In this document: piece after piece, positions 8,229-61,674 of the stretch
Numbering within the stretch: the stretch's first letter is position 1
Layout of the letters: the number at the start of each line of letters is the position of its first letter
Assembly (NCBI GenBank): GCA_021796335.1
Contig: JAJYHZ010000001.1
Coordinates: 219,454 to 283,453 of the forward strand
Direction: 5' to 3'
DNA: 64,000 nucleotides
Source of the DNA: a bacterium
Lineage (GTDB): Bacteria > Patescibacteriota > Minisyncoccia > UBA6257 > UBA9933
The notes under the pieces: model-generated
The model's input: only the letters and a program-made list of their open reading frames with translations
Database searches by the model: none
What the model was told of the DNA's origin: nothing
Position numbers and translations under genes: made by a program

Positions 8229-8266
8229 AAATTCGCTTTAAAAATTAAAAAACCCCGCCAATTAAA
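8229..8266 (-). terminator. rho-independent terminator downstream of the LamG-domain gene
   Basis: Minus-strand RNA reads aaaacccugc-loop-gcgggguuuu followed by uuaauuuuu. The stem is 10 bp with one G-U pair. Confidence 0.45.
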
Positions 8267-8416
8267 GCAGGGTTTTTAATTAATTTCATCGTTTTCTCTC
8301 CTGAGTCTCGTCGGGAGTTATCTGACGGAATATCCTTCCATCCCCTTTTCTTAATAATCTGTATATCACTCTCATATGCATCGAAACTTAATCACTCGGA
8401 TCTCGGGACGGACCGC

Positions 8417-11152
8417 TTATGGATTCGTAATCGTGCAGGTGTTGCCGCAGGAGCCTGCCGGCGTCTTACCGGTCATGGTTTCGTAATGTGCGTCGATCTG
8501 CGCCTGCGAAAGCAAGTGATCATACACTGCCACCTTACCCACCGCGCCCTTGAACCATGTGTCCATCGCCATCGTACCGATGGTAAGAGGTGATGAACCC
8601 GCTTTCGGCGCAATATCGTACTGGCTCATACAGCCAGTCGGCGCGTGCGCAGCAAAATCTTGCTTAACGCCATCCACCCAGATGTTAATGGTGCCTGGAT
8701 ATGCCGAAGAACAAGCCGGGGGTGTTTGTGTCGTGTCATATTCCGCAACGACATAAACCCACATACCAGTCTTAAACAAGCCTGCGACCGGCTGCCAATC
8801 CGCCGCGCTGCCTAAACCCGCGGATGGATTAAAGACATAAGCGGAGAAGCGGTTCGGACGGTTTTCAGGGGTGACAGCGCTGTAAAGACGCGCCTCCCAC
8901 TCACAGCTTGGCGAGTAGTTCTCGCATTTTCCCATCCAATCAACATAGCCATCACCGCTTGCGTTCGGGAACTGAAGTGTGTCAAGCCGCACCCAACCTT
9001 CCCAGGTAAGCTGACCGGTAGTCGGGATGGAAAGCGCAGGATTAGACGGAACCGTAAGATACTCGCTTGAACCGTTAAAGTCGGCGGCGATATCGCCGTT
9101 AGGCATTGCTACCGTGCTTGGCGTACCGCCTTTGTAGGTGCCGTCATTACCGTGGCCAGAAAGATCTGTCTCGTGCCCCGACGAAGACGAATTCATCGAA
9201 AAATACATAACCGGATTATCGGCAAGTATGAGCGAGTCGTATGTCGAAGCCGGAACTGAAGCTGATACTGGGTCAAGAGTGGAAATCGGCGCCAAAGCGC
9301 TATTTACTGCAACCGATGAATTAGAAAAAACATAATTTTTGAACGAAGCATCCATAAAATCTGTTCTAACTCCCCCATAACCGGTGTTTGTCATCGGCGA
9401 TCCTCCTTGTGATCCGTTATCGGTTGTCTGAACCGCTAAAACCCAATTTCCAGTATTATTCTTGTCAATATAAACCTGGATAAGAACCGAACCATCCGGC
9501 TGGTTAGTTACAACCGAGCGAAGTCCGATCCATGTATTTAGCGGAATTAAATTGGGATTACTGTTCTGATTGTAATTTCCGGAATAAACCTTGTTTAAAG
9601 CAAGTGTGTAGTATGCGCCATTTTCTTTTTTCTTAATTACGGCCTGCCCGTCAACACGAATACCGGTATAATAAACATTATTCTGATCGACGTATCTATT
9701 AAAAAAGAAAATGCCATTTGACGCGTTCCTATTCGGACTCGAACTTAACCAATACTTAGACACATTAAAATACGCCTGTTGCGATTCATTTTGATTTGAT
9801 GATTTAGTTACCAAACGAAAGATATTTTGCGGATGATAACCGTTATCAGTATCCACCGGATTTGTACTGTTGTACAAAATTCTCCATGGATCATTACTCG
9901 GCAAGCTTCCCGTAATTGATTTTCCCACTCCATTATTTACATAAAAGTATGCGCCCGAACTTAACCACCAATCCGAATCAGCACTTGCACTCATGGAATC
10001 TGCTTCAGTAATTATTCGATTTGCATTGAGTCCATAATAATTAGAAGTGGAAGTAGAAATGTTTACAGTAGAAGAACTTGTCTGGATATTTGTCGTCGAC
10101 GTTGTTGGACTGTTTGATTGAATTGACGTATTGCTTAATGTCTCACTGCCAGCGTCTGCAAAAGCATTAATGTAATTGAGATCTGTTGCTGTAGATTGTT
10201 CTGTTCGAAACGCATAACCAAGACCAACTGTTTTTTCTGACGATCCTTGCGGAGTTACGTAAATATCATAACTATGGTTGGGAATATCGATTGCCAAGCG
10301 GAATGTGTAAGTATTCCCCGCAGTATAAGGAATTGCGGTTTGAGCTTGATAACTTGAGCCGTTTCTGGCATCAATGTTCCCGTTAGTATTGAATCTGACG
10401 ATTGCGGCAAGATCAGTAAATTTTGAAGCTAATTGAGAAGACAGTCCGATAACGCCGTCCATATTATTTCCGTTTGGTATTGCATCAAAAGTAGCAGTGA
10501 ATTTGCCATTTTGAGCAGTTATTGGATTTCCTTGCCAGACGGAATTTGTTGTTATTGAGTTGTTTGTATTTGTTGTTGTCGTCGACGTTGTTGGACTGTT
10601 TGATTGAATTGACGTATTGCTTAATGTCTCACTGCCAGCGTCTGCAAAAGCATTAATGTAATTGAGATCTGTTGCTGTAGATTGTTCTGTTCGAAACGCA
10701 TAACCAAGACCAACTGTTTTTTCTGACGATCCTTGCGGAGTTACGTAAATATCATAACTATGGTTGGGAATATCGATTGCCAAGCGGAATGTGTAAGTAT
10801 TCCCCGCAGTATAAGGAATTGCGGTTTGAGCTTGATAACTTGAGCCGTTTCTGGCATCAATGTTCCCGTTAGTATTGAATCTGACGATTGCGGCAAGATC
10901 AGTAAATTTTGAAGCTAATTGAGAAGACAGTCCGATAACGCCGTCCATATTATTTCCGTTTGGTATTGCATCAAAAGTAGCAGTGAATTTGCCATTTTGA
11001 GCAGTTATTGGATTTCCTTGCCAGACGGAATTTGTTGTTATTGTTAAGGTTGAATTAGTAACGGCATTAGCTGGTAAAATTATCAAGCTAAGCGCCATTA
11101 TTCCCAATAAAACACCTGAAAATGCTTTATTGAGATTAGAAGCATAATTCAT
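8417..11152 (-). CDS. secreted repeat protein with C-terminal LamG/concanavalin-A-like domain
   Basis: 911 aa with a signal peptide (MNYASNLNKAFSGVLLGIMALSLIILPANA). It has two identical ~162-aa modules and S/T-rich linkers. The C-terminal segment ...DLSGHGNDGTYKGG...FNGSSEYLTVP...WEGWVRL is typical of LamG-like jellyroll domains. The 3' third (8417-9400) is much GC-richer than the rest of the gene. Confidence 0.75.
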   Translation of the reverse strand: MNYASNLNKAFSGVLLGIMALSLIILPANAVTNSTLTITTNSVWQGNPITAQNGKFTATFDAIPNGNNMDGVIGLSSQLASKFTDLAAIVRFNTNGNIDARNGSSYQAQTAIPYTAGNTYTFRLAIDIPNHSYDIYVTPQGSSEKTVGLGYAFRTEQSTATDLNYINAFADAGSETLSNTSIQSNSPTTSTTTTNTNNSITTNSVWQGNPITAQNGKFTATFDAIPNGNNMDGVIGLSSQLASKFTDLAAIVRFNTNGNIDARNGSSYQAQTAIPYTAGNTYTFRLAIDIPNHSYDIYVTPQGSSEKTVGLGYAFRTEQSTATDLNYINAFADAGSETLSNTSIQSNSPTTSTTNIQTSSSTVNISTSTSNYYGLNANRIITEADSMSASADSDWWLSSGAYFYVNNGVGKSITGSLPSNDPWRILYNSTNPVDTDNGYHPQNIFRLVTKSSNQNESQQAYFNVSKYWLSSSPNRNASNGIFFFNRYVDQNNVYYTGIRVDGQAVIKKKENGAYYTLALNKVYSGNYNQNSNPNLIPLNTWIGLRSVVTNQPDGSVLIQVYIDKNNTGNWVLAVQTTDNGSQGGSPMTNTGYGGVRTDFMDASFKNYVFSNSSVAVNSALAPISTLDPVSASVPASTYDSLILADNPVMYFSMNSSSSGHETDLSGHGNDGTYKGGTPSTVAMPNGDIAADFNGSSEYLTVPSNPALSIPTTGQLTWEGWVRLDTLQFPNASGDGYVDWMGKCENYSPSCEWEARLYSAVTPENRPNRFSAYVFNPSAGLGSAADWQPVAGLFKTGMWVYVVAEYDTTQTPPACSSAYPGTINIWVDGVKQDFAAHAPTGCMSQYDIAPKAGSSPLTIGTMAMDTWFKGAVGKVAVYDHLLSQAQIDAHYETMTGKTPAGSCGNTCTITNP
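10085..11043. repeat. perfect tandem direct repeat, 2 x 486 bp, inside the CDS
   Basis: The sequence tgtcgtcgacgttgttggactgtttgattgaattgacgtattgcttaatg... recurs with an offset of exactly 486 bp (10091 vs 10577). About 470 bp of each copy are identical by eye. Confidence 0.85.
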
Positions 11153-11512
11153 TTATTTTTATCCGCTTTCGATATCACACTAATCTGAACGTTTTGGAAC
11201 CTCGACTATCTTTGCGCAAATAGTTTCTCGTTTTATAAGTAAATTAATCAAAAACACTGTGCATTAACCAATTAAAAACCTCGACAAGGAAACAAAACAT
11301 AAAAATTAATGCAGGTTTTATCGATAATTACCCATAAAAACCATATCTTCAGCAGATAAAAAAGCGTATCATCCAAATCTCAAAAAAGCAAGGAAAATAA
11401 GGGTTATTTACACTCTAAGGCAAAAATGATGTAACATTCTTGACAGAAGATTTAGAATTTATTTCTCTATAAAAATTGAGCGGTTAATTAAAAATAGGAC
11501 ATGGATTATTTT

Positions 11513-11560
11513 AAAAGTAAAACGCCACTGGCTAAAAATTGTGGCGTTTTACTTTTAAAA
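11513..11560 (-). terminator. hairpin terminator downstream of the 11592..12671 gene
   Basis: A 13-bp stem agtaaaacgccac/gtggcgttttact flanked by T/A runs on both sides. It lies ~35 bp below the stop codon. Confidence 0.5.
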
Positions 11561-11591
11561 ATTATGCCGGGAAAAAACAGCCAAGAAAGAG

Positions 11592-12671
11592 CTACGGCTG
11601 AATTTCTCTAACACTCATTTTTTTATAAATCAGACCGTTTTCATTTACGTTGTCGCTTCTCCAATATACCGCAATGTTCGGTTTGCCCGATTCGGACCCC
11701 GGACGCTTGTTACTATCGGTCAGTTTCAGCGCCGGATTTATGCCAGGTGCGCAAGCCACCCCTCCGACTCCGAAGTTATTGCCATCATCGACAAATTCAT
11801 TTATTTTTTTCCAATCTCCGCCGTTTGCGCCATCCGTCAAATCCATATAAGCTTCAAGCTTTACTTTACCTTCGGAGAGATCATAAACCACGAATTTATA
11901 TCCGATCCACCGATCGTATGGCATTCCGTTGGGCCATATTGTTTTATTTGCGATTGCCGTTGAATTCGGATGGCTTGTCTCTTTTTCAAAATCCGTATGA
12001 CCGTCGTATCTTATCCTCGCATCAATCCCCCTGGTATCGCAGAGATTCTGCAGTTCGTTTCCGGTAGCTCCGTGATTTGTGCGCGCAACTCCTTCAATGC
12101 CGCCCCATGGAGTGTTTTGGTCGGAAATACGCTCGGCATAAACAGTCATTTCTACATTATGCCAACTTTGTTTAAGAGCGGGATCGTAAATATACATTCG
12201 CGGAGTTGACCCTGATATGTATAAAAGCCCCTTACCGTCAGCGTAATATGCCGCATCTCCGTGATCGGCGTCAAACCATAAATCTTGAGGATCAACTCCG
12301 GAAAATTTTCTTGCTATACCGTCATTCCATTGTGAAAACCATTCTTTTCCATCCGCAGCCGTAGGATAAATTTCGGCTATTCCAAAGACATCTTTACCGG
12401 ATATCTTTGCTTTTGGAATTGTTCCCGAGCCGAATCCATAACCTGAAAAAGCCGAAGAAGTATTATTTTTGTACGATGAATTATTTTCAAATCCGTAATT
12501 TTCTAAAGTGCTCGGAGAAGTTGAAGTATATTGCGGCACTACGCCAGGCTTGGAAGATTTTTTTTTGCTTTTTGCAGCTTCGAATACAAACACGGCAAAT
12601 ATTGCAAAAATCAAAATTGCTATAAAAAATATCGTTTTGGGTTTTAATTTTAATCCTGCAAATTTACTCAT
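11592..12671 (-). CDS. exported hypothetical protein, probable beta-jellyroll (lyase/lectin-like) fold
   Basis: 359 aa with an N-terminal signal anchor ([17 protein letters not shown]). The body is rich in W, Y, G and D. Its composition is beta-sheet-like with no ATP-binding or nucleotide-binding motifs. GC content is moderately elevated. Confidence 0.55.
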
Positions 12672-12699
12672 TTTTAAAAACGGCCGAATGGCCTGGATA

Positions 12700-12728
12700 T
12701 TGACTTTTAATTTAATATCGTATATATT
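12700..12728 (+). promoter_or_regulatory. sigma70-like promoter TTGACT-17-TATATT
   Basis: -35 at 12700-12705 and -10 at 12723-12728 with an exact 17-nt spacer. There is no plus-strand CDS downstream. Confidence 0.4.
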
Positions 12729-12734
12729 ATTAAC

Positions 12735-12836
12735 GTGAGTGAAAAGTTTTTCTTGTCTTTATCCGCCTCGGCGGACGAGGACATCCAAGAAAAGCTCTAT
12801 CCCAGTTTCCTCCGCCGAAAGGCGGAGGTTTTTATT
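12735..12836 (+). ncRNA. candidate small RNA (~100 nt) between two minus-strand genes
   Basis: A promoter is followed by two GC hairpins (ccgcc-tc-ggcgg at 12763-12774, and cctccgcc-GAAA-ggcggagg at 12809-12828). The second hairpin is followed by tttttatttggttt. It is oriented against the flanking genes. Confidence 0.35.
12809..12836 (+). terminator. rho-independent terminator (8-bp GC stem, GAAA loop, T-run)
   Basis: cctccgccgaaaggcggagg followed by tttttattt. On the minus strand the hairpin follows an A-run and has no downstream U-run, so it terminates plus-strand transcription. Confidence 0.55.
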
Positions 12837-12866
12837 TGGTTTGATTTTATTTTAAAAGGAAATATT

Positions 12867-15617
12867 TTATTGCGGATTTAGCATTTTTATTCCATAATCA
12901 TTAGTCACCACCTTTACTCCGGTCTGCGCGATATAATCCACTATTTGCTGGAATAATGCCGGCGTGATCGCGTAATTATCATTACTTGAATCAACCCTGT
13001 GAAATACTAAAACCAGCCATGTTTTGTCGGCGATTGACTGGTTAATCCAATTTTCGAACTGAGCCAAAGTGGTCGTATTTACCGCTTCCTGATATTTCAA
13101 TAAAAAATGGTCTGTTGATTTATCATTAAATCCGCTTTGCGTCGTTCTCGCTCCGACATATAATCCTGAATTTTTTAAAATCTGAACGGAAGTTGCGTCA
13201 TATTCTCCAAAAGGATAAGCAAATGTTGTTACATTTATGCCGATGCTATTTAGGGCATCCCACGAACCAGTAATTTCGTTCTGTTGGTCCGCATACGATA
13301 ATTGCGGCAAATGCGAATGATCAATCGTGTGCGAACCAATTTCCATTCCTTGGCTCTGCATATCCAAAACTTGAGCCGCATTTACGTAATCCGTATAATT
13401 GCCGTTAAGCGTATTGGTTATTATGTAAAATGTCCCTGATAAATTCGCTTGTTTTAAAATCGGAAAAGCTGTCTGATAAGCAGATATGTCACCATCATCG
13501 AAATTCAACGAAACCATCCCTTCAGAAAATTTATAAGGATTGTTTCCTAAATCTTTTAAATAATAATCATCTACTTTTAAAGATCCGACTCCGGTCAAAC
13601 TATGAAAAATAGTTATGGTTTTTGTGCCTGACGGAACTGCAAATTTTACATCAACCCCATTCCAGTTGTTTGCAAGAGTCGGACTCGCAATCGTTTGATA
13701 TTGATATGTCCCATCGGACATATGTAGCGCGACTTCAACCGTGTTTTGCGCAGTAGCCATATATTTATCCGAAAATTCATATAAATCTCCCGAAGTCGCA
13801 TTAACTTCAGAAAAATACCATTTCGCATCGCCGTTAGTATAGGAAGAAATATCAATTTCAGCCGCTTTACTATTAGTGCCGTCCACACCCGAAACCGGAT
13901 AAATAAAATTTGGAGTATTTACTCCCCATCCTCCCTCATACCAATTTTGCGGCAAACCTGTTGCGGAATCTGCAATTTCAAAGGATGGGTTCTTAATTAA
14001 ATTATCAGTTGATGTAGGAGGCGGAGGAGGAGGCGTCGGAGAAGTTATATCATTTAAATTAAATTCCCCGGTTGTTAATGAACCGACGCTCACCAAAGAG
14101 TGCAAAATTGTAACAGATTGCGAATTAGCAGGAGCAATAAAAGTGGACGTTGCAACTGCCGGGCTAATTGATGCCCCGGGCCTTGATAAAAGCAAATAAG
14201 AATATGTTCCGTCTGCTAAATGCACTCTGGCAATTATTGCCGTTGATGTGTCGGCGGTATAATAGTCGGAAAATTGGTATTGATGGCCGGGAATAACCGC
14301 AACATCCTTAAAATACCATCTGGAAGCTCCGCTTGTATATGAAGATATGCTTATTTTTGCCGCATCATCATTATTAAATCCCGCGACAGGATAAGTAAAT
14401 GTTGTTTGGTTAACGCCCCAATTGCCCTTATACCAGCCCTGTGGCAGACCGCTTGAAGCATCCATTAATGAAAGCGAGGGATTGAAAATTAAGTTATCAG
14501 TATTTGTTGCCGCAGGCGGCGAAGGCGGAGGAGAAGGCGTTGATGTTGATAAATAAAAATTGTCGGTTGTCAGCGAACCTGCGCTGTCCAAATATTGGTA
14601 AATATTAAGCGATTGCACGCCCGTCGGCACGACAAAAGTTGTTGTGCTGTTTTTCCATGCGTTGGATGCCGATTGAGGAAAATCAATATAAGAATAATAC
14701 CCGCCGGATAAAGTATAGCGTATTTCCAATGTAGTCGGAACTGTTGCAATGTAGGAATCGGAGAAAGTGTAAGTTTGTCCCGGTGTTGCCGGAATATCGC
14801 CGAAGGTCCACTTGGCATCTCCGCTTGTGTATGAAGTCATATCAACCTTGGCTGCATTCCCTCCGTCAATGCCCGGTACGGAATAAGTAAAGTTCGATTG
14901 GTTTATTCCCCATTTATCTTCTGTCCATCCCGCAGGCAAGCCGTCTGCGCCTACTGAATCAAAGGAACCATTATTAATTAAATTGCCGCCAGAAGACGAT
15001 GGAGGCGGAGAAATTATTGAATTTGCAATCAAGGAAAAATTATCTACTGTGAGCGATCCCACATTATCTAAATATTGATATATTGTAAATGACTTAACTC
15101 CGGCAGGAACCGTAAAAGTAGATGTGGAAGATTGCCACGTATCCGAAATGCTTGGAAATACAATGTCGTCATAAGTATAATTCCCATTAATTAAGAGATA
15201 TCTGACCTCAATCGTAGTCGGAACTGTTGCAATATAAGAATCGGAGAAAGTGTAAGTTTGTCCCGGTGTTGCCGGAATATCGCCGAAGGTCCACTTGGCA
15301 TCTCCGCTTGTGTATGAAGTCATATCAACCTTGGCTGCATTCCCTCCGTCAATGCCCGGTACGGGATAAGTAAAGTTCGATTGGTTTATTCCCCAGCTGT
15401 CTTGCGACCAACCTGCCGGCGCTCCATTTGCGCCCGTAATTTCAAAAGACCCATTGGGAATAAGATTCGATAAATCGCTTGCTTTTGTCTTAGAAATTAT
15501 CGGAAAATTCAAGGAGTTAAAAACAAAAATTATTGAAAAAAATACAACTAGGAACCTAAGAAAAACTCTTTTCATAGTATTGAAGAAAATAAAACGACCT
15601 TTTATTTTAAATTTCAA
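12867..15617 (-). CDS. secreted protein with 4 CBM-like modules and a C-terminal polysaccharide deacetylase (CE4/NodB) domain
   Basis: 916 aa with a signal anchor. It has four ~160-aa modules (NGSFE...GWxxDxWGxNQSxFTY...YTSGDAKW...Y), which are CBM4/9-like, joined by P/S linkers. The C-terminus has NFDDGDISAY...GSHTIDHSHL, which are CE4 deacetylase motifs. Confidence 0.75.
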   Translation of the reverse strand: MKFKIKGRFIFFNTMKRVFLRFLVVFFSIIFVFNSLNFPIISKTKASDLSNLIPNGSFEITGANGAPAGWSQDSWGINQSNFTYPVPGIDGGNAAKVDMTSYTSGDAKWTFGDIPATPGQTYTFSDSYIATVPTTIEVRYLLINGNYTYDDIVFPSISDTWQSSTSTFTVPAGVKSFTIYQYLDNVGSLTVDNFSLIANSIISPPPSSSGGNLINNGSFDSVGADGLPAGWTEDKWGINQSNFTYSVPGIDGGNAAKVDMTSYTSGDAKWTFGDIPATPGQTYTFSDSYIATVPTTLEIRYTLSGGYYSYIDFPQSASNAWKNSTTTFVVPTGVQSLNIYQYLDSAGSLTTDNFYLSTSTPSPPPSPPAATNTDNLIFNPSLSLMDASSGLPQGWYKGNWGVNQTTFTYPVAGFNNDDAAKISISSYTSGASRWYFKDVAVIPGHQYQFSDYYTADTSTAIIARVHLADGTYSYLLLSRPGASISPAVATSTFIAPANSQSVTILHSLVSVGSLTTGEFNLNDITSPTPPPPPPTSTDNLIKNPSFEIADSATGLPQNWYEGGWGVNTPNFIYPVSGVDGTNSKAAEIDISSYTNGDAKWYFSEVNATSGDLYEFSDKYMATAQNTVEVALHMSDGTYQYQTIASPTLANNWNGVDVKFAVPSGTKTITIFHSLTGVGSLKVDDYYLKDLGNNPYKFSEGMVSLNFDDGDISAYQTAFPILKQANLSGTFYIITNTLNGNYTDYVNAAQVLDMQSQGMEIGSHTIDHSHLPQLSYADQQNEITGSWDALNSIGINVTTFAYPFGEYDATSVQILKNSGLYVGARTTQSGFNDKSTDHFLLKYQEAVNTTTLAQFENWINQSIADKTWLVLVFHRVDSSNDNYAITPALFQQIVDYIAQTGVKVVTNDYGIKMLNPQ
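14731..15420. repeat. intragenic direct repeat, period 483 bp, ~200 bp near-identical
   Basis: gtagtcggaactgttgcaat...gcattccctccgtcaatgcccggtacgg occurs at 14731 and again at 15214. It corresponds to two of the four CBM-like modules. Confidence 0.75.
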
Positions 15618-35156: not shown

Positions 35157-37550
35157 TTATACAAGTTCCGTTTCTTTTTCCCTTACAAAGAAATGATAAA
35201 TGCCGAATCCTATTAGAAGTCCGAGTAAAAGATCGAACAGCCAGTTGCCGAACAGAGTCCCTATGGTTCCAAGTATTGAAGCAGAAATCGACGGGCCGCC
35301 CGCCACGATTATAGTCAGGTAAGAACTTACGGCTTGGAATCTTCCCCTGTAATCTGAATAGTTCATAATCGAAGTAAATACCAGTGAATCTCCCCCTTTG
35401 GCAGAATTATTTACTTTTACTTTCATATTGACGGCGCTTTGGCTGTTTGCCGCAACAGTTCCGATCATAAACTTAAGATTATTATTCTCTTGAGAAGAAG
35501 GCTGTATATCTGCGCTTTCATAAGAGACTTCGTTCGGCAAAGCAATTTGCAAAACCGCATTTGAAACCGCGCGATTACCGCTATTCTTATACACGACGGT
35601 ATAAGTCATTTCATCTCCCGCATTCGGATTATTATTATCAACCGAAGGAGTGAGTGAAACTGTTATGCCCGGAGCCGCAGGAGGAGTGTAAACCGCTATC
35701 CCCGTACTTGGAATTGCATACGCCGGAGATTTAGTAGTAAAAGTAAGCATACTTCCGTAACTCGTACCCGCCGCGTTTTGCGCAACCGCCCTGAAATAAT
35801 ATGTCGTGTTTGAATTTAATCCGGATAAAGCGAACGATAAAGGAACGGACAATGAATCATGCCCGGCCGGCTGAACAGTTGTTTCGAATCCAAAAGAAGG
35901 GGTCGCCCCCCATTCAAACCAGGCGTTTGTAAATAGATTATTAGTTATAACCGCTCCGTTTAATACGGTGGAGTTCTGGTATACAATGCTTGCCGGTAAA
36001 GTCGTCACCATCGGTGCTTGCCCGCCTGCGCTTATAACTGCTCCGCTGCCGGTCGTAAATGTCAGAATACTTCCGTAATTCGTGCCAAAAGAATTTTGTG
36101 CAACCGCTCGATAATAATAAACGGCATTAGGAGTAAGGTTGCTTATAAAAGTATTTACGTTCATAAACCCGTTAATCTGCTGGAATCCAGACGTATATCC
36201 CAAGTTTTGTGTCGGTCCGTATTCAAACCACATACTTGCAACTGATCCGTTTGAATTCACGTCTCCATTTAAGGTTGCGGAATTCGAGGTAATATTAGTT
36301 GCCGCATCAGTATTGACGGTCGGAGCAGAAGAGATAAATCCCGTGCCGAATTGAGAGGTATTAAACGACACTATGCTTCCGTAAGTCGTGCCAAAAGAAT
36401 TTTGAGCGACTATGCGAAAATAATATGTAGTATTTGTGTTTAATGAGGAGAGGAAACTGGCGATATTAACCGCAAAATTTCCGCTTCCCGCATCCTGTGA
36501 TGCCGTTGTGAATCCCAAAGATCCGGTCGGTCCGTATTCAAACCAAACATTGGTTTCCGAATTGTTCGAATTAACAGTTCCGTTCAAAACCGCCGAATTT
36601 TGCGTAATATTAGTGGCCAAATTAGTGGTCACGATAGGAGCCACTCCGTTTATTGCGCCAGTTTGAGTTGTAAACGAAATCACATTCCCATAAGTTGTCC
36701 CAAAGGAATTTTGAGCAACTGCCCGGAAATAATAAGTTTGTCCAGAATTAAGTCCGCTCAAAAATGAAGTTATATTGAAAGCCGAATTTCCGCTGCCAAT
36801 ATTTTGGAACCCAATAGTTGATCCCAAAGAAGGGCTTGTTCCATATTCAAACCAAACGGTGGTATTTGATCCGTTTGGATTAACGCTGCCGTTTAAACTT
36901 GCGGAATTTTGCGAAATATTTGTTACAAATTGATTTAAGATAGCCGGAGCTTGGTTTTGCGCGGACTGCGACTGGCTGCTTAATTGGGCCCTGAAAACAA
37001 TATAGCCCTGTGCGCTCCATCCCGGCGCGATATCACCTATATTCAGGCCGGAAAAAGAAACTATTTCCGAACCGTTTTGGCCGTTTAATAAACCGGTTGA
37101 ATTACTCGAATCATGATTAGCGAACCATTTTACCGTTCCGGGAAGAAAAGCCAGGGTTTGAGAATTTCCCGAACTGATATTTAATGAAACATTCCCATTC
37201 GCCGAATTCGCGTTAGAAGAAAAAATTGTCCCGTTTATTGTTTGAGAAGTAAAATTTCCCGTTGGTAAATTTACGCTCGCATGCGTCTGTGAAGCCGTAA
37301 CATCCGAAGTGTTGTGGTAATAAACCAAAAAACTGATTACGTCTCCGGGATTTGCGGAAACAGAAGTTGACCAGCAGCTAGTGCATCCCGGATGCTGCGT
37401 ATAATTGGAAATCTGCAATGTCGGATAATCTTTGGGGTCAGTATTAAATGTCGCTGTTGCCGCTTGCGCGCTCAATAACGGCAAAAATATCGCCATTGTA
37501 AAAATTCCGACAAAACCTGCTTTTAAAATTATTGTTAACTTTTTTTTCAT
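35157..37550 (-). CDS. cell-surface repeat protein (4 Fn3/PKD-like modules + DUF11-like domain + C-terminal TM anchor)
   Basis: 797 aa with a signal peptide. It has four ~95-aa repeats (NITxNSAxLNGxVNxN..xWFEYG...YYFRAVAQNSFGTxYG). The DUF11-like segment is TYTVVYKNSGN. The C-terminal segment WLFDLLLGLLIGFGIYHFF is a TM helix. Confidence 0.7.
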   Translation of the reverse strand: MKKKLTIILKAGFVGIFTMAIFLPLLSAQAATATFNTDPKDYPTLQISNYTQHPGCTSCWSTSVSANPGDVISFLVYYHNTSDVTASQTHASVNLPTGNFTSQTINGTIFSSNANSANGNVSLNISSGNSQTLAFLPGTVKWFANHDSSNSTGLLNGQNGSEIVSFSGLNIGDIAPGWSAQGYIVFRAQLSSQSQSAQNQAPAILNQFVTNISQNSASLNGSVNPNGSNTTVWFEYGTSPSLGSTIGFQNIGSGNSAFNITSFLSGLNSGQTYYFRAVAQNSFGTTYGNVISFTTQTGAINGVAPIVTTNLATNITQNSAVLNGTVNSNNSETNVWFEYGPTGSLGFTTASQDAGSGNFAVNIASFLSSLNTNTTYYFRIVAQNSFGTTYGSIVSFNTSQFGTGFISSAPTVNTDAATNITSNSATLNGDVNSNGSVASMWFEYGPTQNLGYTSGFQQINGFMNVNTFISNLTPNAVYYYRAVAQNSFGTNYGSILTFTTGSGAVISAGGQAPMVTTLPASIVYQNSTVLNGAVITNNLFTNAWFEWGATPSFGFETTVQPAGHDSLSVPLSFALSGLNSNTTYYFRAVAQNAAGTSYGSMLTFTTKSPAYAIPSTGIAVYTPPAAPGITVSLTPSVDNNNPNAGDEMTYTVVYKNSGNRAVSNAVLQIALPNEVSYESADIQPSSQENNNLKFMIGTVAANSQSAVNMKVKVNNSAKGGDSLVFTSIMNYSDYRGRFQAVSSYLTIIVAGGPSISASILGTIGTLFGNWLFDLLLGLLIGFGIYHFFVREKETELV

Positions 37551-37706: not shown

Positions 37707-38891
37707 TTAATTCGCCGGGAAAGGTGCCGGGCCATCAGGCTCGCCACTATTTGGCGGCGGACCGTTTGCCGGAAGAGGCGCGGGACCTGTTGGCCCCGGA
37801 ATGACGAACCTCTGCGGCTCCGGTTTTTTTATTTGCTTTCCGCCGGCATAACCGCCGACGGCTCCTAACAGTGCCCCCGCAGCTTCGCAGCGCGGGTCGC
37901 TATCGTGGTGTGGGAAAAAAATCCTATATAGCCCGGCTAGTACTCCTCCAGCCAGAAAATATGGCTGGTACCGCCGGGCCGCGAAGCCAAGTGCCAATAA
38001 TGCCGAACTGCTAGTCGAGGTAATAGTGTCCACTCCGATACAATGTACTACCGGAACGGACACTGAAGCGAACGCGGTCCCGCATTTGCTTTGAACCGCT
38101 ACGCGCATCTGGGAAACTTCTTTCCTTTTTGCGACGTAGAATGTTTTTACAATAGGCTGATTGTAATCGCCGACTACTTCAGCCTCAGTTCTGCTGCCAT
38201 CAAACTCTACCCAGCCGTATGTTTGAGTCCCGGCCGGATTTATGGAGGTCGAAATCAAATACCCGTTCTCAACCTCCATCATCTGATCGACTGTAATAGT
38301 CGGCGACGCGCATGCCACCGGCTTTTCAACAACCGGAGGAGGGACATTAACTGACGCGGGAGGAGGAACTTTAAGGCTTTCAATGGCCTTTCGCAGTTCC
38401 TTTATCTGATTTTTTAATCCGCCTATCTCAGCTTTTGCTTCAGCTTTAGCCTCAACCCTAACCGCCGCCTTTCGTACACGCACATACTTCTTTTTTACTC
38501 GTCGCTTTTTTACACCGCCAACAATGCCTGGGCATAGAGCCTCCTCTTCACAGAGGTGCGGCCCCCATACCAACGCTACCCACTGGCCGTCTTGCCGCTG
38601 AACCTGGACCGGCGACCCGAACATCATTACCGGCCCTTCTTTTCTCACTATATCATACGCCACTTCAACCGGCGTATTTTTTTTAATCCACAAAGCGCCG
38701 CCCACGGTCCGGACATACACATCTGCCGGAGACAAGATTTTTTTCACTTCGATCTTCTGCGTCTTTTTTAAAGACGCATAGTTTTTTTGAATATTCACAA
38801 TCCCCACCTGCCAGCCGAAGCTAACCGAGGGAACAAAAAACCCGACCAAAACGGCAACTGTAAAAAACGAAAAAAATTGCTTCCTCATCAT
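37707..38891 (-). CDS. compositionally foreign (GC-rich) exported hypothetical protein
   Basis: 394 aa. Shine-Dalgarno site aaAGGAGGtttta before the ATG and an N-terminal signal/TM helix. It has a KAEAKAE coiled-coil segment, a glycine-zipper-like GALLGAVGGYAGG and a Pro-rich tail. The DNA is visibly GC-rich against an AT-rich background. Confidence 0.6.
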   Translation of the reverse strand: MMRKQFFSFFTVAVLVGFFVPSVSFGWQVGIVNIQKNYASLKKTQKIEVKKILSPADVYVRTVGGALWIKKNTPVEVAYDIVRKEGPVMMFGSPVQVQRQDGQWVALVWGPHLCEEEALCPGIVGGVKKRRVKKKYVRVRKAAVRVEAKAEAKAEIGGLKNQIKELRKAIESLKVPPPASVNVPPPVVEKPVACASPTITVDQMMEVENGYLISTSINPAGTQTYGWVEFDGSRTEAEVVGDYNQPIVKTFYVAKRKEVSQMRVAVQSKCGTAFASVSVPVVHCIGVDTITSTSSSALLALGFAARRYQPYFLAGGVLAGLYRIFFPHHDSDPRCEAAGALLGAVGGYAGGKQIKKPEPQRFVIPGPTGPAPLPANGPPPNSGEPDGPAPFPAN

Positions 38892-39457: not shown

Positions 39458-42148
39458 CTATTTTCCGGCGACCTTTCCAAAATTATTTCTAAGAAAATTA
39501 AAAATCGTGGGGTTTTGTTTTAAAATCATTCGGCGGTCTTCGACAGGTATTTTTCTTATTATTTTCTCTAGCTTATCTACTAAAGCTTCTTTATCCTGGA
39601 TCGCCCACCAATTCGGGCTTCCCCACTCCGGCCTTGCGTAAGTCGGATCAAACCTGTTTGAAACGCCGTAAATAAATTTATTCTTATCTTGAGTTAAAAT
39701 ATCGGCGATGTGATGATTTTTCAAAGCATCAAGCGAAACAACGGAGTTGTCCGGATTGATTTTAAACATTGATTCAAAATATTTTTTAAAATCACTGTCG
39801 GATAGAACATTGTGCGCGCCGGCTGATTCCGGATGATTGTAATCGAAATGCGCCTCTGATCCCGGCGCGTGATAATGAAAATAATAGTCCGGATAATCTT
39901 CGGTCGCGCGGCTTCCCGCTTCATGGATATTTTTTTGAGCAGAATTATCTATCCCGAATTGCCCGCGATTTTCGGGAGTATTGTCAAGCACGCGGTTATG
40001 TGAAAATTCAGCGCCGTGGCCGAATGACAAACTGCTACCGTGCGGATCAATTTGAATGGAACCATGTCTGATATGTCTCATCATTTCTTCATATCCGGCC
40101 ATATTTTTTGAATAACCCAACTTTTCCAATTGCTTTAATGTATCCGGATTCTTTAACGCGCTTTCGGCCTGATTATGCCATAAATTATGCGCCTCTGTTT
40201 CCGCCCAATGATGTAAGTCGCCTTTGCTTTCGTTCCAGCCGAAAGATCTTGCCAATTCGTGATTTGTATCATGCTTATCTATAAACTTGTCGATAATGGA
40301 TCCTTCCGGTCCACGACTTCCTATCTCCAATTTGATTGGTTGATTTACGTGCTCAATTCCGATGTTGCCCGCATGCTGGCCGGGAATATTCTCTCCGGCA
40401 AATTGCCCATTCCCGCCTTTATTCCCGATATTCAAATGATTGTGTCCGATTGGCTCCAAATGATTTAATGAATTGCCGCCGCCAACCGTTGCATGGCGAT
40501 GCATTAAATTATTTATTTGGGAATCCCAACCATGGACATGCGAAAGCGTTCCCAATCCGTATCCTGCAGCCATACCCGTTCCCAGCATTGCCACGCCTTT
40601 TATTAATTTTTTCTTCCTATTTTTTGTCTGAAGTTGTTCTAATACTTTTTGGTATCTTTCTCCATATTCGCGCATTTTTTCCGCAGTCAATTCGCCGCCG
40701 GATAATTGCTCCCCTAATTTTTCTTTTTCACTCTTATGGAATTTTTCAATATTTCTGGATAAAACCGTATCTACACCCTTTCCGGTAAATTGACTCAGGG
40801 CGGCTCCGCCAAAGGCGCCCAAAATCCTCCTGCCGACAAAAACTGCAGCGCCGATTCCCGCAGCCGTTCCGCCGGAAACAGCAGTTGTAATCGCCACTGA
40901 TGATAAAATCCTGACGCTTCTTGGCAACTTTAAATACCCGTCCAAAGCTTTTTTGAAAATGTTCTTTTTCTTCGGTGGCCAGCTTTCAATTTTATTTTCT
41001 TGCAATGCAAGAGTTTCATTATAAATTAAGATTTTTGCAATCTCCTCAGCTTTGAATTTTTTGAGCTCATTTTCCAAATCATCGCCCTGCATGCCTCGCT
41101 CTACTAAATTATTTTTCTTTTGTTCAAGCAAAGCATTGCCGTAATTTATGTTTGCCTCTTCATAATCCAATTTAAACGCCTCCGCATTATAAATCGCTTC
41201 AGCGCGCTCGCGCGTGAAAAATCCGCCGGCCGCCGATACCTGGCTTATATATTTTTCTTTTCGTCTCAAAGCTTCCTTATATTCATCGGCCTCTGGAGGC
41301 AGTGATTTTAGTTTTTCCGGATCATCGGGACTTAATAAACCTTTGAATGATTTAATAGTTGATTCGAGAGCCCATCTTTCTTCTTTTTTTAAATTATTCC
41401 CGAAAATTCCGATATAATCTTTATAAGCATTCGCATACTCCTCGCGCCTATTATCTCTTATATTTTTCCATTCTTTTATTTCCTCTCCTTTGGTTTGTTT
41501 TTCGGTTTTAAATTTATTCTTGCCAGCCTCAAAGAATTCCCCCATATAATCTTTGCTTGCCAGATCTTGTTTTTTATTTTTTTCTTCGCCATTACTTTCA
41601 TCGAGGTTAAATCCCTTTTCACCCGCTTCAAAATATTCTGCCATATAATCCTTCTGTCTTGTCTTCCTTTTATTCTCCGAGCTTATTGGCTTATCAGTGC
41701 TATTTTCTGGTTTATCAAAGATTTCTTCTCCCTCGGGATCGGGAGTCGGATCAACCACATCATGGCTTTCAAGCTCAGCTTCTATTTCGCCATCTTCGGC
41801 TTTATTAACTGTACTATCAGAAACTGAATCGGCAACTTTTCCTGAATTTCCGCCATTGTCTTTTTGAATCAGTTCTTCCTTAATTTTTTTTAGTTTAAAC
41901 TCTATGGAATCCAATTTTTTTACATTTGACCTGCTATTATCTTCTTCATCAATGCTTATTAAATCCTCATTTAATCGATTTAAACGATTAATAATTTCCG
42001 CAGAATTATCCATTTTCCCGATTTCATCGCTTAATTCATGAATTTTTTTCAAAACCCCTCTGGCGGTCAGAGTTTCTCCGCCTTTTCCTTTGGCGATTAA
42101 TTTGTCTATCCCGCTGTGATCTTTATTATTAGGATAACCTTCTTTCAT
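39458..42148 (-). CDS. large orphan membrane-associated protein with internal repeats and His/Gly/Asn-rich C-terminal region
   Basis: 896 aa. It has repeated KDYM(A/G)E(Y/F)FEAG motifs. A central pair of Gly/Ala-rich TM helices reads SSVAITTAVSGGTAAGIGAAVFV...MLGTGMAAGYGLG. The C-terminal region is H-rich (HVHGW, HRH, HNH). Confidence 0.6.
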   Translation of the reverse strand: MKEGYPNNKDHSGIDKLIAKGKGGETLTARGVLKKIHELSDEIGKMDNSAEIINRLNRLNEDLISIDEEDNSRSNVKKLDSIEFKLKKIKEELIQKDNGGNSGKVADSVSDSTVNKAEDGEIEAELESHDVVDPTPDPEGEEIFDKPENSTDKPISSENKRKTRQKDYMAEYFEAGEKGFNLDESNGEEKNKKQDLASKDYMGEFFEAGKNKFKTEKQTKGEEIKEWKNIRDNRREEYANAYKDYIGIFGNNLKKEERWALESTIKSFKGLLSPDDPEKLKSLPPEADEYKEALRRKEKYISQVSAAGGFFTRERAEAIYNAEAFKLDYEEANINYGNALLEQKKNNLVERGMQGDDLENELKKFKAEEIAKILIYNETLALQENKIESWPPKKKNIFKKALDGYLKLPRSVRILSSVAITTAVSGGTAAGIGAAVFVGRRILGAFGGAALSQFTGKGVDTVLSRNIEKFHKSEKEKLGEQLSGGELTAEKMREYGERYQKVLEQLQTKNRKKKLIKGVAMLGTGMAAGYGLGTLSHVHGWDSQINNLMHRHATVGGGNSLNHLEPIGHNHLNIGNKGGNGQFAGENIPGQHAGNIGIEHVNQPIKLEIGSRGPEGSIIDKFIDKHDTNHELARSFGWNESKGDLHHWAETEAHNLWHNQAESALKNPDTLKQLEKLGYSKNMAGYEEMMRHIRHGSIQIDPHGSSLSFGHGAEFSHNRVLDNTPENRGQFGIDNSAQKNIHEAGSRATEDYPDYYFHYHAPGSEAHFDYNHPESAGAHNVLSDSDFKKYFESMFKINPDNSVVSLDALKNHHIADILTQDKNKFIYGVSNRFDPTYARPEWGSPNWWAIQDKEALVDKLEKIIRKIPVEDRRMILKQNPTIFNFLRNNFGKVAGK

Positions 42149-57820: not shown

Positions 57821-59572
57821 TTATGAACTTTTCTCCTGCTCCATTTCTAATAATTGTTCCGGATTTGTCGTTATTGTTTTGTCTTCAAAATAAGACGCCA
57901 CTATTTTGAGCGCAACGTGCTTCAAACCCACCAAAAACAATCCTTCGCCGACATCGGCCTGGCTCAACAGTCCTTTCTCGATTTCGCTCAAACTGAAAGT
58001 TTTTTCCAAAACGCCGATAGCAGACGGAGCCTGCTTTAATAATAACTGCAAAGATGAATTTGTTATTATCGGCTGGCCGTACTGCGAATTTAAAAAGTCT
58101 TCCACGTTCTGAGTAATCGTCGTAAGCCCCAAATAGTATTTTCTGCATCGCTTTGCCAAAGAAAATAAAAATGACGCGCTGTCCGGATACTTCATCATCC
58201 ACCACGCTTCATCGATTATCAAAATTCTTTTTTTTAGTTCCGATCTGATCAAATTCCACACAAAATTCAAAACGATATATACCGCAATCGGCCTTAACTC
58301 TTCCTCTAAATCCCTGATCGAAAAAACAACCAACCTGTTTTTTATATCAACGTTCGTCGGCTTATTCGCGAATCCGGCATAAGTCCCCTTTGTAAATTTA
58401 TATAATCGGGATGCCAAACTTTGACCGCCTTCGATATTTTCCAAAACAGTCTGTAAATCTTCGAGCAGTGGCGGCTCTATTTTTGAAAAATCTTCCACAT
58501 CGGCGGTAATCCCGCGCGAAGCATAAGTTTCCGTAATGGCTCGGTCCAAAAGCGCATCTTCTTCCGGCGTAATCTGCCCTACCATCAGCTTTAATAAACC
58601 GGCCAGGTTTAAAATATGAGATTTGAATACATCGGCCGGATCTTCGCCCTTCGGAACAATTGGAATATCCAAAGGATTAATAGAAGTTTTTGAAGTTAAA
58701 GAAATTTTCAAAACGCTTCCCCCAACCGCCTCCGCAAGCCTTTGGTATTCGTTTTCAGGATCAATAACCATAATGTCTATTCCCATCATCAATGAACGCA
58801 GGATCTCCAATTTTGTCGCATAAGATTTCCCCGCGCCGGCTTTCGCAAAAACCACCTGGTTCGCATTTTCCAAAGAAAACCTGTCAAAAATAACCAGCGA
58901 ATTATTAAACCGGTTAATCCCGTACAAAACTCCCGTGTCCGAAGTCAGATCGGTTGAAACAAAAGGAAACAAGGATGAAGCCGGATTTGTGTTTAAGGGC
59001 GTATAAATAGCCAACTTATCCTGGCCTGTCGGCATTGTTGATATGAATCCTTCGATATGCTGAAAAATCGCCGGTTTCGCATAGACCATCTGGCTATCCA
59101 GAATCGAAATAACCTGTTCTTCCAGCTTATTCAATTCATCCACGGTCTTCGCATAAATAGTTACATAGACCCCTACATTGAAAAGTTTTTCCTGAGCCTG
59201 CTGCAATTGGTCGCGCAAATTTTCTATATCCTGATAAGCGGTTTCCAGAACAGGATCGCGGACCAATCCTTTATCGTCTCTTTCAGAAAGCTGGGACTCG
59301 ATTTGAGTAACCTTCTTTCTCAGCTGCTTCAAAGCGGTGGTGGTATCAACCGGATGGACGAAAACGGAAACATCCAAAAGATTCGGAAGATTTATTATTG
59401 AATCAAACCATCCCGTGGACAAATATCGCGGATAAGTGAAAACAAAAAGAGTTTTAGAAACTATATCCCCCAACCTTAAATAATTCGGATTCACTTCCAA
59501 GGCCGCGGGAGCAATCACATTTTTCACATCTTCCTCCTTCGAATTGAATGGTTGTGGAATTTCTATTTTCAT
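57821..59572 (-). CDS. VirB4-like T4SS ATPase (TrsE/TcpF/Orf16-type), core + ATPase domains
   Basis: Walker A AKAGAGKSYAT, Walker B/DEAW motif LIIDEAWWMM and YPRYLSTGWFDSIINLPNLLDVSVFVHPVD, typical of Gram-positive VirB4 homologues. 583 aa, which is short. Confidence 0.8.
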   Translation of the reverse strand: MKIEIPQPFNSKEEDVKNVIAPAALEVNPNYLRLGDIVSKTLFVFTYPRYLSTGWFDSIINLPNLLDVSVFVHPVDTTTALKQLRKKVTQIESQLSERDDKGLVRDPVLETAYQDIENLRDQLQQAQEKLFNVGVYVTIYAKTVDELNKLEEQVISILDSQMVYAKPAIFQHIEGFISTMPTGQDKLAIYTPLNTNPASSLFPFVSTDLTSDTGVLYGINRFNNSLVIFDRFSLENANQVVFAKAGAGKSYATKLEILRSLMMGIDIMVIDPENEYQRLAEAVGGSVLKISLTSKTSINPLDIPIVPKGEDPADVFKSHILNLAGLLKLMVGQITPEEDALLDRAITETYASRGITADVEDFSKIEPPLLEDLQTVLENIEGGQSLASRLYKFTKGTYAGFANKPTNVDIKNRLVVFSIRDLEEELRPIAVYIVLNFVWNLIRSELKKRILIIDEAWWMMKYPDSASFLFSLAKRCRKYYLGLTTITQNVEDFLNSQYGQPIITNSSLQLLLKQAPSAIGVLEKTFSLSEIEKGLLSQADVGEGLFLVGLKHVALKIVASYFEDKTITTNPEQLLEMEQEKSS

Positions 59573-59588
59573 TTAAATAATTTTCTTT

Positions 59589-59608
59589 AGGTTAATTAGA
59601 ATAATTAG
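59589..59608 (-). promoter_or_regulatory. CTAATTA iteron-like motif copy A (20-mer ctaattattctaattaacct)
   Basis: Lies 16 nt upstream of the VirB4-ATPase ATG. It is a near-identical 20-mer to copy B and consists of three 8-bp-spaced CTAATTA units. Confidence 0.4.
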
Positions 59609-59679
59609 TAATTAGTTTAAATTTTATTTATTATTTTAACTCGTTATCGCGTTAACCCGTTAATACCTAATCTATTGGT

Positions 59680-60333
59680 TTATTTATCTTGTCGTACTAT
59701 ATGCAATTCTTTCTTTTCCATCGGCTGCGGATTGTATAAATTGTAAAATAATTCTATCAATTCCTCGGTCATAAGCGCGACCGCCCGCAAACCGATTGCA
59801 GATAACCCGGCGACAACCTCATCAGTCCTTTGATCTAATTGGCTTATCTTTTCTTCCAGGGTTTGTGCATCCTCCGACGCGTTTTTTTTCTTCTTGCCAA
59901 AAAACGGAATTGCTTCCATAACTTTTTCGGTTCCCTCGGAGATATTTATCGCATCATATGGAACGACAACGAAAAAATTTTTGGACATAATTTCGTTTGA
60001 TTCAACGAAAGATTTCACAAATTCCACGTACTCGGAAATCTGATCTTTCAGCAAGTCGTTCTTTTCGTTCTCCTGCATCTCACTTAAATTATCCAAATAC
60101 CCTTTGATATTTAATTTCCTCGAGTGAATGACTATTTGTAATGAAAAATCGAGGGAATTCAAAAAATTTTGATAAGCTCCCAAAATCGCGTTCTGCTCGT
60201 CTTCGGATTTCAATTCGAAGTTAATTCCCGTTACCATCAAAACCCGCCGTAAAGAGCCGCTTTTTAAAATAACTGTCCCGTCGCGGATTTCTTCGATATC
60301 AACAAATTGTTGGGTTGATTGGGATTCTTTCAT
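59680..60333 (-). CDS. protein resembling the N-terminal (CagE/TrbE/VirB4 N-domain) part of VirB4
   Basis: 217 aa with no TM helix. DGTVILKSGSLRRVLMVTGINFELKSEDEQNAILGAYQNFLNSL matches the pattern of the VirB4 N-terminal domain as I recall it. It lies 107 bp upstream of the ATPase ORF on the same strand. Confidence 0.45.
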   Translation of the reverse strand: MKESQSTQQFVDIEEIRDGTVILKSGSLRRVLMVTGINFELKSEDEQNAILGAYQNFLNSLDFSLQIVIHSRKLNIKGYLDNLSEMQENEKNDLLKDQISEYVEFVKSFVESNEIMSKNFFVVVPYDAINISEGTEKVMEAIPFFGKKKKNASEDAQTLEEKISQLDQRTDEVVAGLSAIGLRAVALMTEELIELFYNLYNPQPMEKKELHIVRQDK

Positions 60334-60402
60334 AATAACTAATAGTAACTAGTCGTTGGTTTTTAGTTTTCGCAATAAACTTTTCAACATTTTCATAACT
60401 TC

Positions 60403-60711: not shown

Positions 60712-60757
60712 TTTTTTAAAAAATAATATCTAAAAACTAACGGCTAATACTAACCGA

Positions 60758-61270: not shown

Positions 61271-61292
61271 ACAACAAAAATTAATCTAATTT

Positions 61293-61659: not shown

Positions 61660-61674
61660 AATTGGAATTTACTT

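Follow-up and report, generated by a model that had tools for sequence, protein, structure and literature searches.

The 64-kb stretch of DNA analysed here (64,000 nucleotides of contig JAJYHZ010000001.1, from a member of the Patescibacteria; hereafter the window) contains, at positions 8417-15617, a block filled by three minus-strand open reading frames (ORFs) that we designate P1, P2 and P3. We propose, with arguments for and against in near balance, that these encode the exported part of a conserved set of proteins making and processing an extracellular polysaccharide based on N-acetylglucosamine (GlcNAc), probably with glucuronic acid and partly de-N-acetylated. The most unusual part of the trio is P2, a protein of 359 amino acids (aa) that a preliminary description of this DNA had treated as the least defined: its C-terminal domain, here termed X, is described neither in the libraries nor in the literature searched; P1 and P3 belong to known kinds. 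That description had also reported three back-to-back minus-strand genes, and the ORFs agree exactly with its coordinates. Each has hundreds of homologues, so that these are genuine genes rather than chance ORFs, and proteins identical to all three are recorded in NCBI.

In the AlphaFold2 (AF2) model, P2 comprises an N-terminal hydrophobic helix, taken as a signal anchor from which membrane topology is predicted, a Ser/Thr/Asn-rich linker (aa 36-82) modelled as disordered at low predicted local distance difference test (pLDDT) values, and a β-sandwich of concanavalin A (ConA)/L-type-lectin-like fold, the X domain, with pLDDT mostly above 90. The preliminary description had called this protein exported and β-rich, with a lyase or lectin fold in view, and the model accords with both attributes. 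The best Foldseek neighbours of X are L-type lectins (E 2.5e-6, 9-13% identity), with no lectin match in Pfam or NCBIfam; searched as a single sequence or as a 42-sequence profile, X matches nothing in Pfam, NCBIfam, PHROGs or the PDB sequences. A Pfam match of P2 to the YxzE 'bacteriocin' family was dismissed, as it lies on the transmembrane/low-complexity region or below the cut-off. X has the motif D-x-E-x-E and not the E-x-D-x(x)-E signature of glycoside hydrolase (GH) family 16 and clan GH-B, and its similarity to β-jelly-roll polysaccharide lyases (PL7, PL14, PL20, PL36) is at the level of fold only, no PDB chain being matched in sequence even by profile. Among 42 aligned sequences 68 columns are invariant, those on β-strands including R219/R221, D227-x-E229-x-E231, E174/T176/Y178, K259 and Y336/R338; the charged residues alternate along the strands, many invariant Asp and Gly residues occupy loops, the pair Cys211/Cys307 is nearly invariant, and a long Gly/Pro-rich insert (aa 296-333) is conserved.

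The domain is widespread and strikingly uniform. Searches returned 1044 clusters (90% identity) matching X at 56-78% identity and, among 1.84 billion representatives at 50% identity, 1119 matches at E <= 1e-3 and 309 at E <= 1e-30; carriers among GTDB genomes include Elusimicrobiota (often with several copies), Myxococcota, Methylococcales, Patescibacteria, DPANN archaea, Verrucomicrobiota and others. Across Patescibacteria, DPANN archaea, Elusimicrobiota, Methylococcales and Myxococcota, the homologues of X show 58-78% identity. X domains of Patescibacteria are 70% identical to one another, and 69%, 70% and 71% identical to those of DPANN archaea, Elusimicrobiota and Methylococcales, respectively. 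Identity within the phylum is about that between phyla, and such a plateau suggests that some two-thirds of positions are under constraint, not simply that transfer was recent. In the 11 loci that encode X together with a family 2 glycosyltransferase (GT2) and a UDP-glucose dehydrogenase (UGDH), median pairwise identity is 68.6% for X, 34.7% for GT2 and 37.2% for UGDH. An N-terminal hydrophobic segment is found in 70 of 83 full-length X proteins, and X is the C-terminal domain in 73; it occurs in single copy beside variable PF22585, discoidin, LamG, FN3 and Big modules, and these fused modules of carbohydrate-binding type are only 40-54% identical to their own homologues, against a value near 70% for X. 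A phage origin of X was rejected, the only IMG/VR contig to carry it (L117, UViG 3300043313_001192, 177 kb, 65% GC) holding the full operon in the order UGDH-CE4-GT2-LamG_3-X (CE4, carbohydrate esterase family 4) and looking cellular. Cellular DNA, or a region next to a prophage, seems a likelier source than a phage gene.

Gene neighbourhood connects X to polysaccharide synthesis. ORFs were called in 78 X loci from GTDB genomes and searched with domain queries, genes within 4 of X (near) being compared by Fisher test with the remaining genes of the same loci (far). GT2 genes made up 21 of 482 near genes (in 18 loci) and 0 of 437 far genes (p = 1e-6), and UGDH genes 11/482 and 1/437 (p = 0.007); for CE4 the counts were 14/482 and 8/437 (p = 0.39). 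A processive GT2 synthase encoded with a deacetylase was found in L005, L006, L008, L017, L027, L037, L066, L117, L118 and L119. The four Pfam-annotated contigs with the closest X homologues (L005, L006, L118 and L119) carry GT2, a CE4 protein of ~520 aa and a protein M (259-312 aa, see below) in that order, with X adjacent and, in three of the four, UGDH preceding; a P3-type protein with two carbohydrate-binding modules (CBMs) and CE4 lies alongside in L005, L006 and L119, and is absent from L118. The order in L119 is X, UGDH, GT2, CE4 (509 aa), M (259 aa) and P3-type 2xCBM-CE4, and that in L118 is response regulator, M (279 aa), CE4 (529 aa), GT2, UGDH, a divergently transcribed X and histidine kinase; L005 and L006 have arrangements equivalent to these. 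On the evidence of the annotated contigs, P3-type CBM-CE4 proteins, X and M, i.e. all three gene types of the block, belong to the GT2/UGDH neighbourhood in other genomes, and such clusters were found in Patescibacteria, DPANN archaea, Methylococcales, Chloroflexota and Myxococcota. The cluster GT2 is NodC-like (115-197 bits), its best solved relatives being hyaluronan synthases (HAS; E 8e-25, as against 8e-7 for chitin synthase). It is this tie to an operon with UGDH and a NodC/HAS-like GT2 that argues for a dedicated extracellular polysaccharide rather than for generic wall remodelling. We found no description in the literature of either the X domain or the UGDH/GT2/CE4/M/X cluster.

Two further features of these loci were observed. 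In two DPANN loci (L017, 9053-9403; L037, 9256-9588) a small helix-turn-helix transposase-like ORF (HTH_Tnp_1 / HTH_28) lies between the operon CE4 and X, which hints that the X gene can be mobilised apart from the synthase operon. In L006 and L118 a response regulator (Response_reg + Trans_reg_C) and a PAS histidine kinase bracket the UGDH-GT2-CE4-M cluster and X, which suggests two-component control of the polysaccharide system.

P3 supplies the deacetylase of the block. Pfam places Polysacc_deac_1 at aa 697-820 (88.5 bits; gathering score 23.1) and matches CBM_4_9 (PF02018) in two stretches (44.5 bits against a cut-off of 25.9), and comparison of the protein with itself by internal tblastn resolves four mutually similar modules, the first two 76% identical in amino acids and the others 41-46%, which bears out the earlier account of a 916-aa protein with four CBM-like modules joined to CE4. 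An in-frame ATG at codon 15 (nt 15575) would give a classical signal peptide, MKRVFLRFLVVFFSIIFVF...TKA/SD, as judged by eye; NCBI lists an identical protein of 916 aa, and the call in a sister assembly is 881 aa. Relatives of the CE4 domain in the PDB extend down to E 3e-14, and its motifs (as defined in PMC5855634) are in register with those of 6dq3, 4wcj and 7bly. Motif 1, (T/Y)FDD, is present as LNFDDGD, aligns with TFDD(S/G) of all three and provides the catalytic base Asp and a metal-binding Asp; motif 2, H(S/T)xxH, is present as GSHTIDHSH, in register with HTVNH and HTYDH, and provides two metal-binding His; and motif 5, LxH(D), is present as LVLVFHRVD, against VVLCYHRV in 4wcj, and provides the catalytic acid His. 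The canonical RxPY of motif 3 is replaced by FAYPFGEY, in which Ala stands for Arg as it does in 6dq3 (AYPSG) and 4wcj (AYPYG); this is a subfamily trait that is not inactivating in those two. With metal and catalytic residues kept, the CE4 domain is predicted to be intact. Proteins of CBM(n)-CE4 architecture are widely encoded among Patescibacteria, and P3 is accordingly an ordinary member of a known protein kind; its closest homologues come from metagenome-assembled genomes labelled Patescibacteria.

Among NCBIfam models the P3 CE4 ranks HfsH (84 bits) above IcaB (42 bits) and PgdA (29 bits), all far under their cut-offs. This ranking bears on the possibility that P3 acts on the cell's own peptidoglycan, conferring PgdA-like lysozyme resistance, with P1 and P2 as functionally unrelated neighbours. 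Genes for FtsW, MurG and an amidohydrolase adjoin the block, and CE4 enzymes do include peptidoglycan deacetylases; however, P3 scores only 22-29 bits with the PgdA models (cut-offs 400-800), a secreted protein with four CBM modules is ill suited to the part of a wall-proximal PgdA, and the recurrence of the three gene types together elsewhere fits poorly with unrelated neighbours. We regard this explanation as very improbable.

The third protein, P1, is predicted from its A-x-A type signal peptide (judged by eye) to be secreted, and consists of four ConA-type modules. The preliminary description had called it a LamG-domain repeat protein, which fits the fold but not the particulars, since what is repeated is the Sialidase-like CBM PF22585 (two stretches, 39.7 bits; cut-off 27) and Laminin_G_3 is single. 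The latter, unlisted when the whole protein is scanned, scores 38.3 bits (cut-off 27.6) if the scan is confined to aa 612-911. Between them lies a region of ~240 aa, designated M, with no family match in the domain scan and a CBM66-like fold; by HHalign (probability 97.4%, E 1e-11) it is, at the level of sequence profiles, a distant paralogue of X. Elsewhere the two are often fused, as X-M or M-X, and M-X-M fusions also exist. Within P1 a 468-nt segment is perfectly repeated in tandem, and one copy is gone from the sister ENA assembly, so that the protein is 749 aa there and 911 aa in the window and the NCBI contig; this difference could be assembly collapse or a real copy-number polymorphism. 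Together with the 2-7 CBM modules counted in P3 homologues, it indicates a variable module copy number, in line with the earlier suggestion of rapid diversification drawn from the modular repeats. Weak Pfam matches of P1 or P3 to DUF5122, KTSC and Dscam_C were dismissed as sub-cut-off or in transmembrane/low-complexity regions. The trio thus comprises exported or membrane-anchored proteins with β-sandwich modules of carbohydrate-binding type and one intact CE4 domain, much as the preliminary description had it when it spoke of exported glycan-binding and glycan-deacetylating proteins.

The target that this description assigned to them finds less support. In that reading a bacterium of reduced metabolism, living as an episymbiont, would attach through the three surface proteins to the wall (peptidoglycan or chitin-like) of a host cell and remodel it. 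The proteins are all exported and rich in glycan-binding modules, the window lacks a synthase, so that the substrate could be foreign, X is also found in DPANN archaea, which are likewise episymbionts, and concanavalin-like proteins of Patescibacteria have been speculated to mediate attachment (PMC12911398). However, the CE4 domain of P3 is closer to exopolysaccharide than to peptidoglycan deacetylases, no LysM, PG_binding or SH3 peptidoglycan-binding domain was found in P1-P3 by Pfam, and the same gene types stand beside the biosynthetic GT2-UGDH operon, in free-living Methylococcales and Myxococcota included. This co-localisation, which extends to free-living groups, speaks for a polymer that most carriers make themselves; we consider a host cell wall an unlikely target.

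A mechanism can be sketched for the processing of such a polymer. Secreted P3 would be kept on the polymer by its four CBM_4_9-like modules whilst its CE4 domain strips N-acetyl groups, turning a neutral or acidic glycan partly cationic and sticky; poly-N-acetylglucosamine (PNAG), holdfast and chitosan are likewise made cationic and sticky through deacetylation. P1, also secreted, would bind glycan multivalently through its four ConA-type modules (two PF22585, the CBM66-like M and LamG), and P2, held in the membrane on its flexible linker, would display X at the cell surface, where it may recognise the modified polymer. Synthase-dependent polysaccharide systems normally include a glycanase or lyase, and in our view X would most likely fill this role by cleaving or trimming the polymer.

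The competing view of X is that it is not an enzyme at all, and acts as a Ca-dependent, L-type-lectin-like receptor or anchor through which the membrane holds on to polymer or partner cell; CE4 excepted, the block would then serve adhesion only. That the paralogue M is CBM66-like, that P2 is tethered to the membrane through a flexible linker, and that the many invariant loop Asp and Gly residues are compatible with metal sites are all consistent with such a role, to which we assign an appreciable, if minority, probability. Against it, lectins and CBMs are rarely so conserved, as the contrast between ~70% for X and 40-54% for its fused CBM-type modules illustrates; X occurs in single copy beside variable numbers of those modules, as catalytic domains do; and the conserved clusters contain no other glycanase candidate. 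On the strength of this extreme conservation, the single-copy-plus-CBMs architecture, the charged residues alternating on strands, the lack of a glycanase candidate inside the conserved X clusters, and the analogy of a GH46 chitosanase encoded beside CBM-CE4 (see below), we lean slightly towards cleavage over pure binding, the argument being indirect.

A number of observations weigh against the proposal of a polysaccharide-processing set. Pfam, NCBIfam and PDB sequence searches give no link from X to any CAZy catalytic family, and its nearest structures are lectins and its paralogue CBM66-like, so that X could equally be a pure lectin. The enrichment of CE4 near X is by itself not significant, and the link of X to a synthase cluster accordingly rests on GT2, UGDH and the annotated loci; about 60 of the 78 X loci have no GT2 within 4 genes, though many of these are short contigs, and L004/L023 and L120 are among the loci without the cluster. 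The chemistry of the polymer is read from gene context only. The 64-kb window encodes neither GT2 nor UGDH, nor do the 9 kb annotated with Pfam past its right end, and the genome may be without a synthase altogether. Should that be so, the version seen in the window could belong to a cell that processes polymer made by a partner.

A further explanation is nutrient scavenging, in which the trio breaks down environmental chitin/chitosan-like or other GlcNAc-containing necromass for a fermentative cell, P3 deacetylating, X cleaving and P1 capturing, with glucosamine (GlcN), GlcNAc and acetate as the gain. The two closest full-length P3 homologues (42% identity, four CBMs and CE4) do have a GH46 chitosanase gene beside the CBM-CE4 gene, which is the classical deacetylate-then-cleave pair, and it has been proposed that a Parcubacteria ectosymbiont frees acetate from exopolysaccharide with its CE4 enzymes (bioRxiv 10.1101/2022.04.20.488981). 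Neither the window nor any X locus examined has GH46. Against scavenging, P1-P3 are accompanied by no gene for sugar transport or GlcN/GlcNAc catabolism, and X is tied in other genomes to the synthase operon, not to catabolic genes; this explanation seems to us improbable. Going beyond the exported set proposed here, it is possible, and we put it forward only tentatively since we think it rather doubtful, that X is a new glycan-active family, most likely of glycanases or lyases, and the signature of an unrecognised system of UGDH, NodC/HAS-like GT2, CE4, M and X that makes an adhesive, partly deacetylated glycosaminoglycan-like polymer and is common to Patescibacteria, DPANN archaea, Elusimicrobiota, methanotrophs and myxobacteria.

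Table 1. Positions in the window of the three genes, their domains and repeats, and the hairpins downstream of them.
Feature	Position	Strand	Remarks
P1	8417..11152	-	911 aa; secreted four-module lectin-like protein: signal peptide, 2x PF22585, M, Laminin_G_3
P1 PF22585 copy 1	10583..11062	-	aa 31-190
P1 PF22585 copy 2	10097..10576	-	aa 193-352
P1 tandem DNA duplication	10090..11043	.	486-bp period; 10090-10557 = 10576-11043, 468 nt, 100% identical
P1 M domain	9317..10042	-	aa 371-612; distant X paralogue, CBM66-like fold
P1 Laminin_G_3 (PF13385)	8495..9076	-	aa 693-886
P1 intrinsic-terminator-like hairpin and T-run	8248..8277	-	downstream of P1; canonical
P2	11592..12671	-	359 aa; membrane-anchored X-domain protein; from ORF and AF2 model
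P2 N-terminal hydrophobic helix	12570..12641	-	aa 11-34; AF2; putative signal anchor
P2 X domain	11595..12404	-	aa 90-359, 270 aa; ConA/L-type-lectin-like β-sandwich
P2 hairpin	11519..11550	-	AAAACGCCAC (12-nt loop) GTGGCGTTTT, then ACTTTTAAAA (T-rich tail); downstream of P2, read from sequence
P3	12867..15617	-	916 aa, TTG start; exported 4xCBM + CE4 polysaccharide deacetylase; from ORF and Pfam
P3 CBM_4_9-like module 1	15048..15446	-	internal tblastn repeat; DNA repeat 86% identical
P3 CBM_4_9-like module 2	14568..14963	-	best Pfam CBM_4_9 stretch, aa 211-343
P3 CBM_4_9-like module 3	14073..14459	-	43% aa identity to module 2
P3 CBM_4_9-like module 4	13578..13964	-	44-46% aa identity to modules 1 and 2
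P3 CE4 (NodB-homology) catalytic domain	12870..13562	-	FDD, HTIDH, AYPFG and LVFHR motifs; Pfam and PDB alignments
P3 GC-rich hairpin	12809..12828	.	CCTCCGCC-TTTC-GGCGGAGG; downstream of P3; T-run after hairpin on + strand only

The block is flanked, as had been reported, by housekeeping genes, with an amidohydrolase, FtsW, MurG and an M29 peptidase on one side and a PurN-like formyltransferase, a SpoU methylase, ASCH proteins and SecA on the other. The sister ENA assembly (L001, L087; MEGAHIT) is 100% identical over 44 kb apart from one 486-bp repeat copy in P1, and a metagenome scan with the flanking amidohydrolase found relatives only at <=29% identity, none with another flank gene. The third-codon-position GC content (GC3) of P1-P3 is 0.354-0.394, compared with 0.344-0.454 for 16 of the 17 other long genes tabulated, and their slightly higher total GC is an effect of amino-acid composition. 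Neither flanking repeats nor mobility genes were found around P1-P3, the flanks having no words of >=10 nt in common, and the window contains no tRNA gene and no Rfam match, the 439-bp P2-P1 gap included. On these grounds we rejected the view of P1-P3 as a foreign or horizontally acquired island: with codon composition core-like, the block is not a compositional island, and core-like composition is part of what the preliminary description had itself named as speaking against one. It had further given each gene its own hairpin terminator: that of P1 is canonical, P2 has a hairpin with a T-rich tail, which escaped the automatic hairpin scan because of its long loop, and the hairpin of P3 has its T-run on the opposite strand.

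Elsewhere in the window, a 394-aa secreted-looking protein encoded at 37707-38891 (minus strand) has a GC content of 0.516 and a GC3 of 0.514, against 0.34-0.45 for the other tabulated long genes, and matches nothing in Pfam or NCBIfam; its gene may be a recent horizontal acquisition. Two large minus-strand genes at 35157-37550 and 39458-42148 encode proteins with no domain in common with P1-P3, one of 797 aa that is secreted-looking, with faint FN3-type matches and a DUF11-type repeat, and one of 896 aa with no family match, which suggests that the window has more than one region encoding surface proteins. Genes resembling a conjugation or type IV secretion set occupy 57821-64000 (minus strand) and run past the right edge (L121), with a VirB4/TraC-type ATPase (583 aa), a TraC-like N-terminal protein (217 aa), a PrgI-like protein (170 aa) and a TrbL_3-like protein (722 aa), interspersed with two small 23S_rRNA_IVP-family genes.

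Patescibacteria are already expected to have CE4 deacetylases and surface proteins of concanavalin type, and the block as first described is ordinary. What makes X notable is an identity of ~70% from bacteria to archaea, as against ~35% for the enzymes encoded beside it, and its tie through gene order to a hyaluronan/chitin-synthase-like operon offers a testable handle on an uncharacterised extracellular polysaccharide system, which could underlie the adhesion of episymbiotic ultra-small bacteria and archaea and the biofilms of methanotrophs and myxobacteria. Some carriers of X clusters are cultured (e.g. Methylovulum and Methylobacter isolates), so that experiments could be possible; if X does prove catalytic, it would constitute a new carbohydrate-active enzyme family.

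Comparison with characterised systems places these proteins more closely. X differs from CBM66, from the C-terminal lectin domain of galactocerebrosidase and from the L-type lectins ERGIC-53 and VIP36 in that identity is <=17% and no family model matches; it is, moreover, ~100 residues larger than CBM66, with its Gly/Pro-rich insert and conserved Cys pair, and far more conserved than is usual for lectins. With β-jelly-roll glycan-cleaving enzymes (GH16, PL7, PL14, the glucuronan lyases of PL20, and PL36) it shares the alternation of acidic and basic residues on adjacent strands and the joining of one core domain to CBMs, although there is no sequence match to the GH16 and PL enzymes and D-x-E-x-E stands in place of the GH16 signature. 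P3 resembles the CE4 exopolysaccharide de-N-acetylases (IcaB/PgaB, Caulobacter HfsH and the streptococcal enzyme 6dq3) in its NodB homology, Asp-His-His metal triad and catalytic Asp and His, shares variants of the AYP(F/Y/S)G and L-x-(F/Y)-H-R motifs with 6dq3 and 4wcj, and is exported as are IcaB, PgaB and HfsH; unlike these three it has four N-terminal CBM_4_9-like modules, and it falls far under every equivalog cut-off (for HfsH, 400 bits).

At the level of gene organisation, the CE4 gene of the related loci is encoded next to a GT2 synthase gene as are icaB and pgaB, whilst P3 in the window has no synthase gene adjacent. The hasAB genes direct the synthesis of hyaluronan, nodBC encode a chitooligosaccharide synthase and deacetylase, and pgaABCD/icaADBC make PNAG. 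The clusters with X differ from all of these operons in encoding two extra exported proteins of ConA type (M and X) and in being found in archaea as well as bacteria, and the window differs from them in holding exported components only. The P3 locus has a further parallel in the CBM-CE4 and GH46 pairs of other Patescibacteria, where a GH46 chitosanase gene takes the place of the X-domain gene found here and where, as in the window, a second exported glycan-active gene lies directly beside CBM-CE4. The related loci, for their part, resemble the has, nod, pga and ica operons in clustering a NodC/HAS-like GT2 gene with UGDH (as hasB) and CE4 (as nodB, icaB and pgaB).

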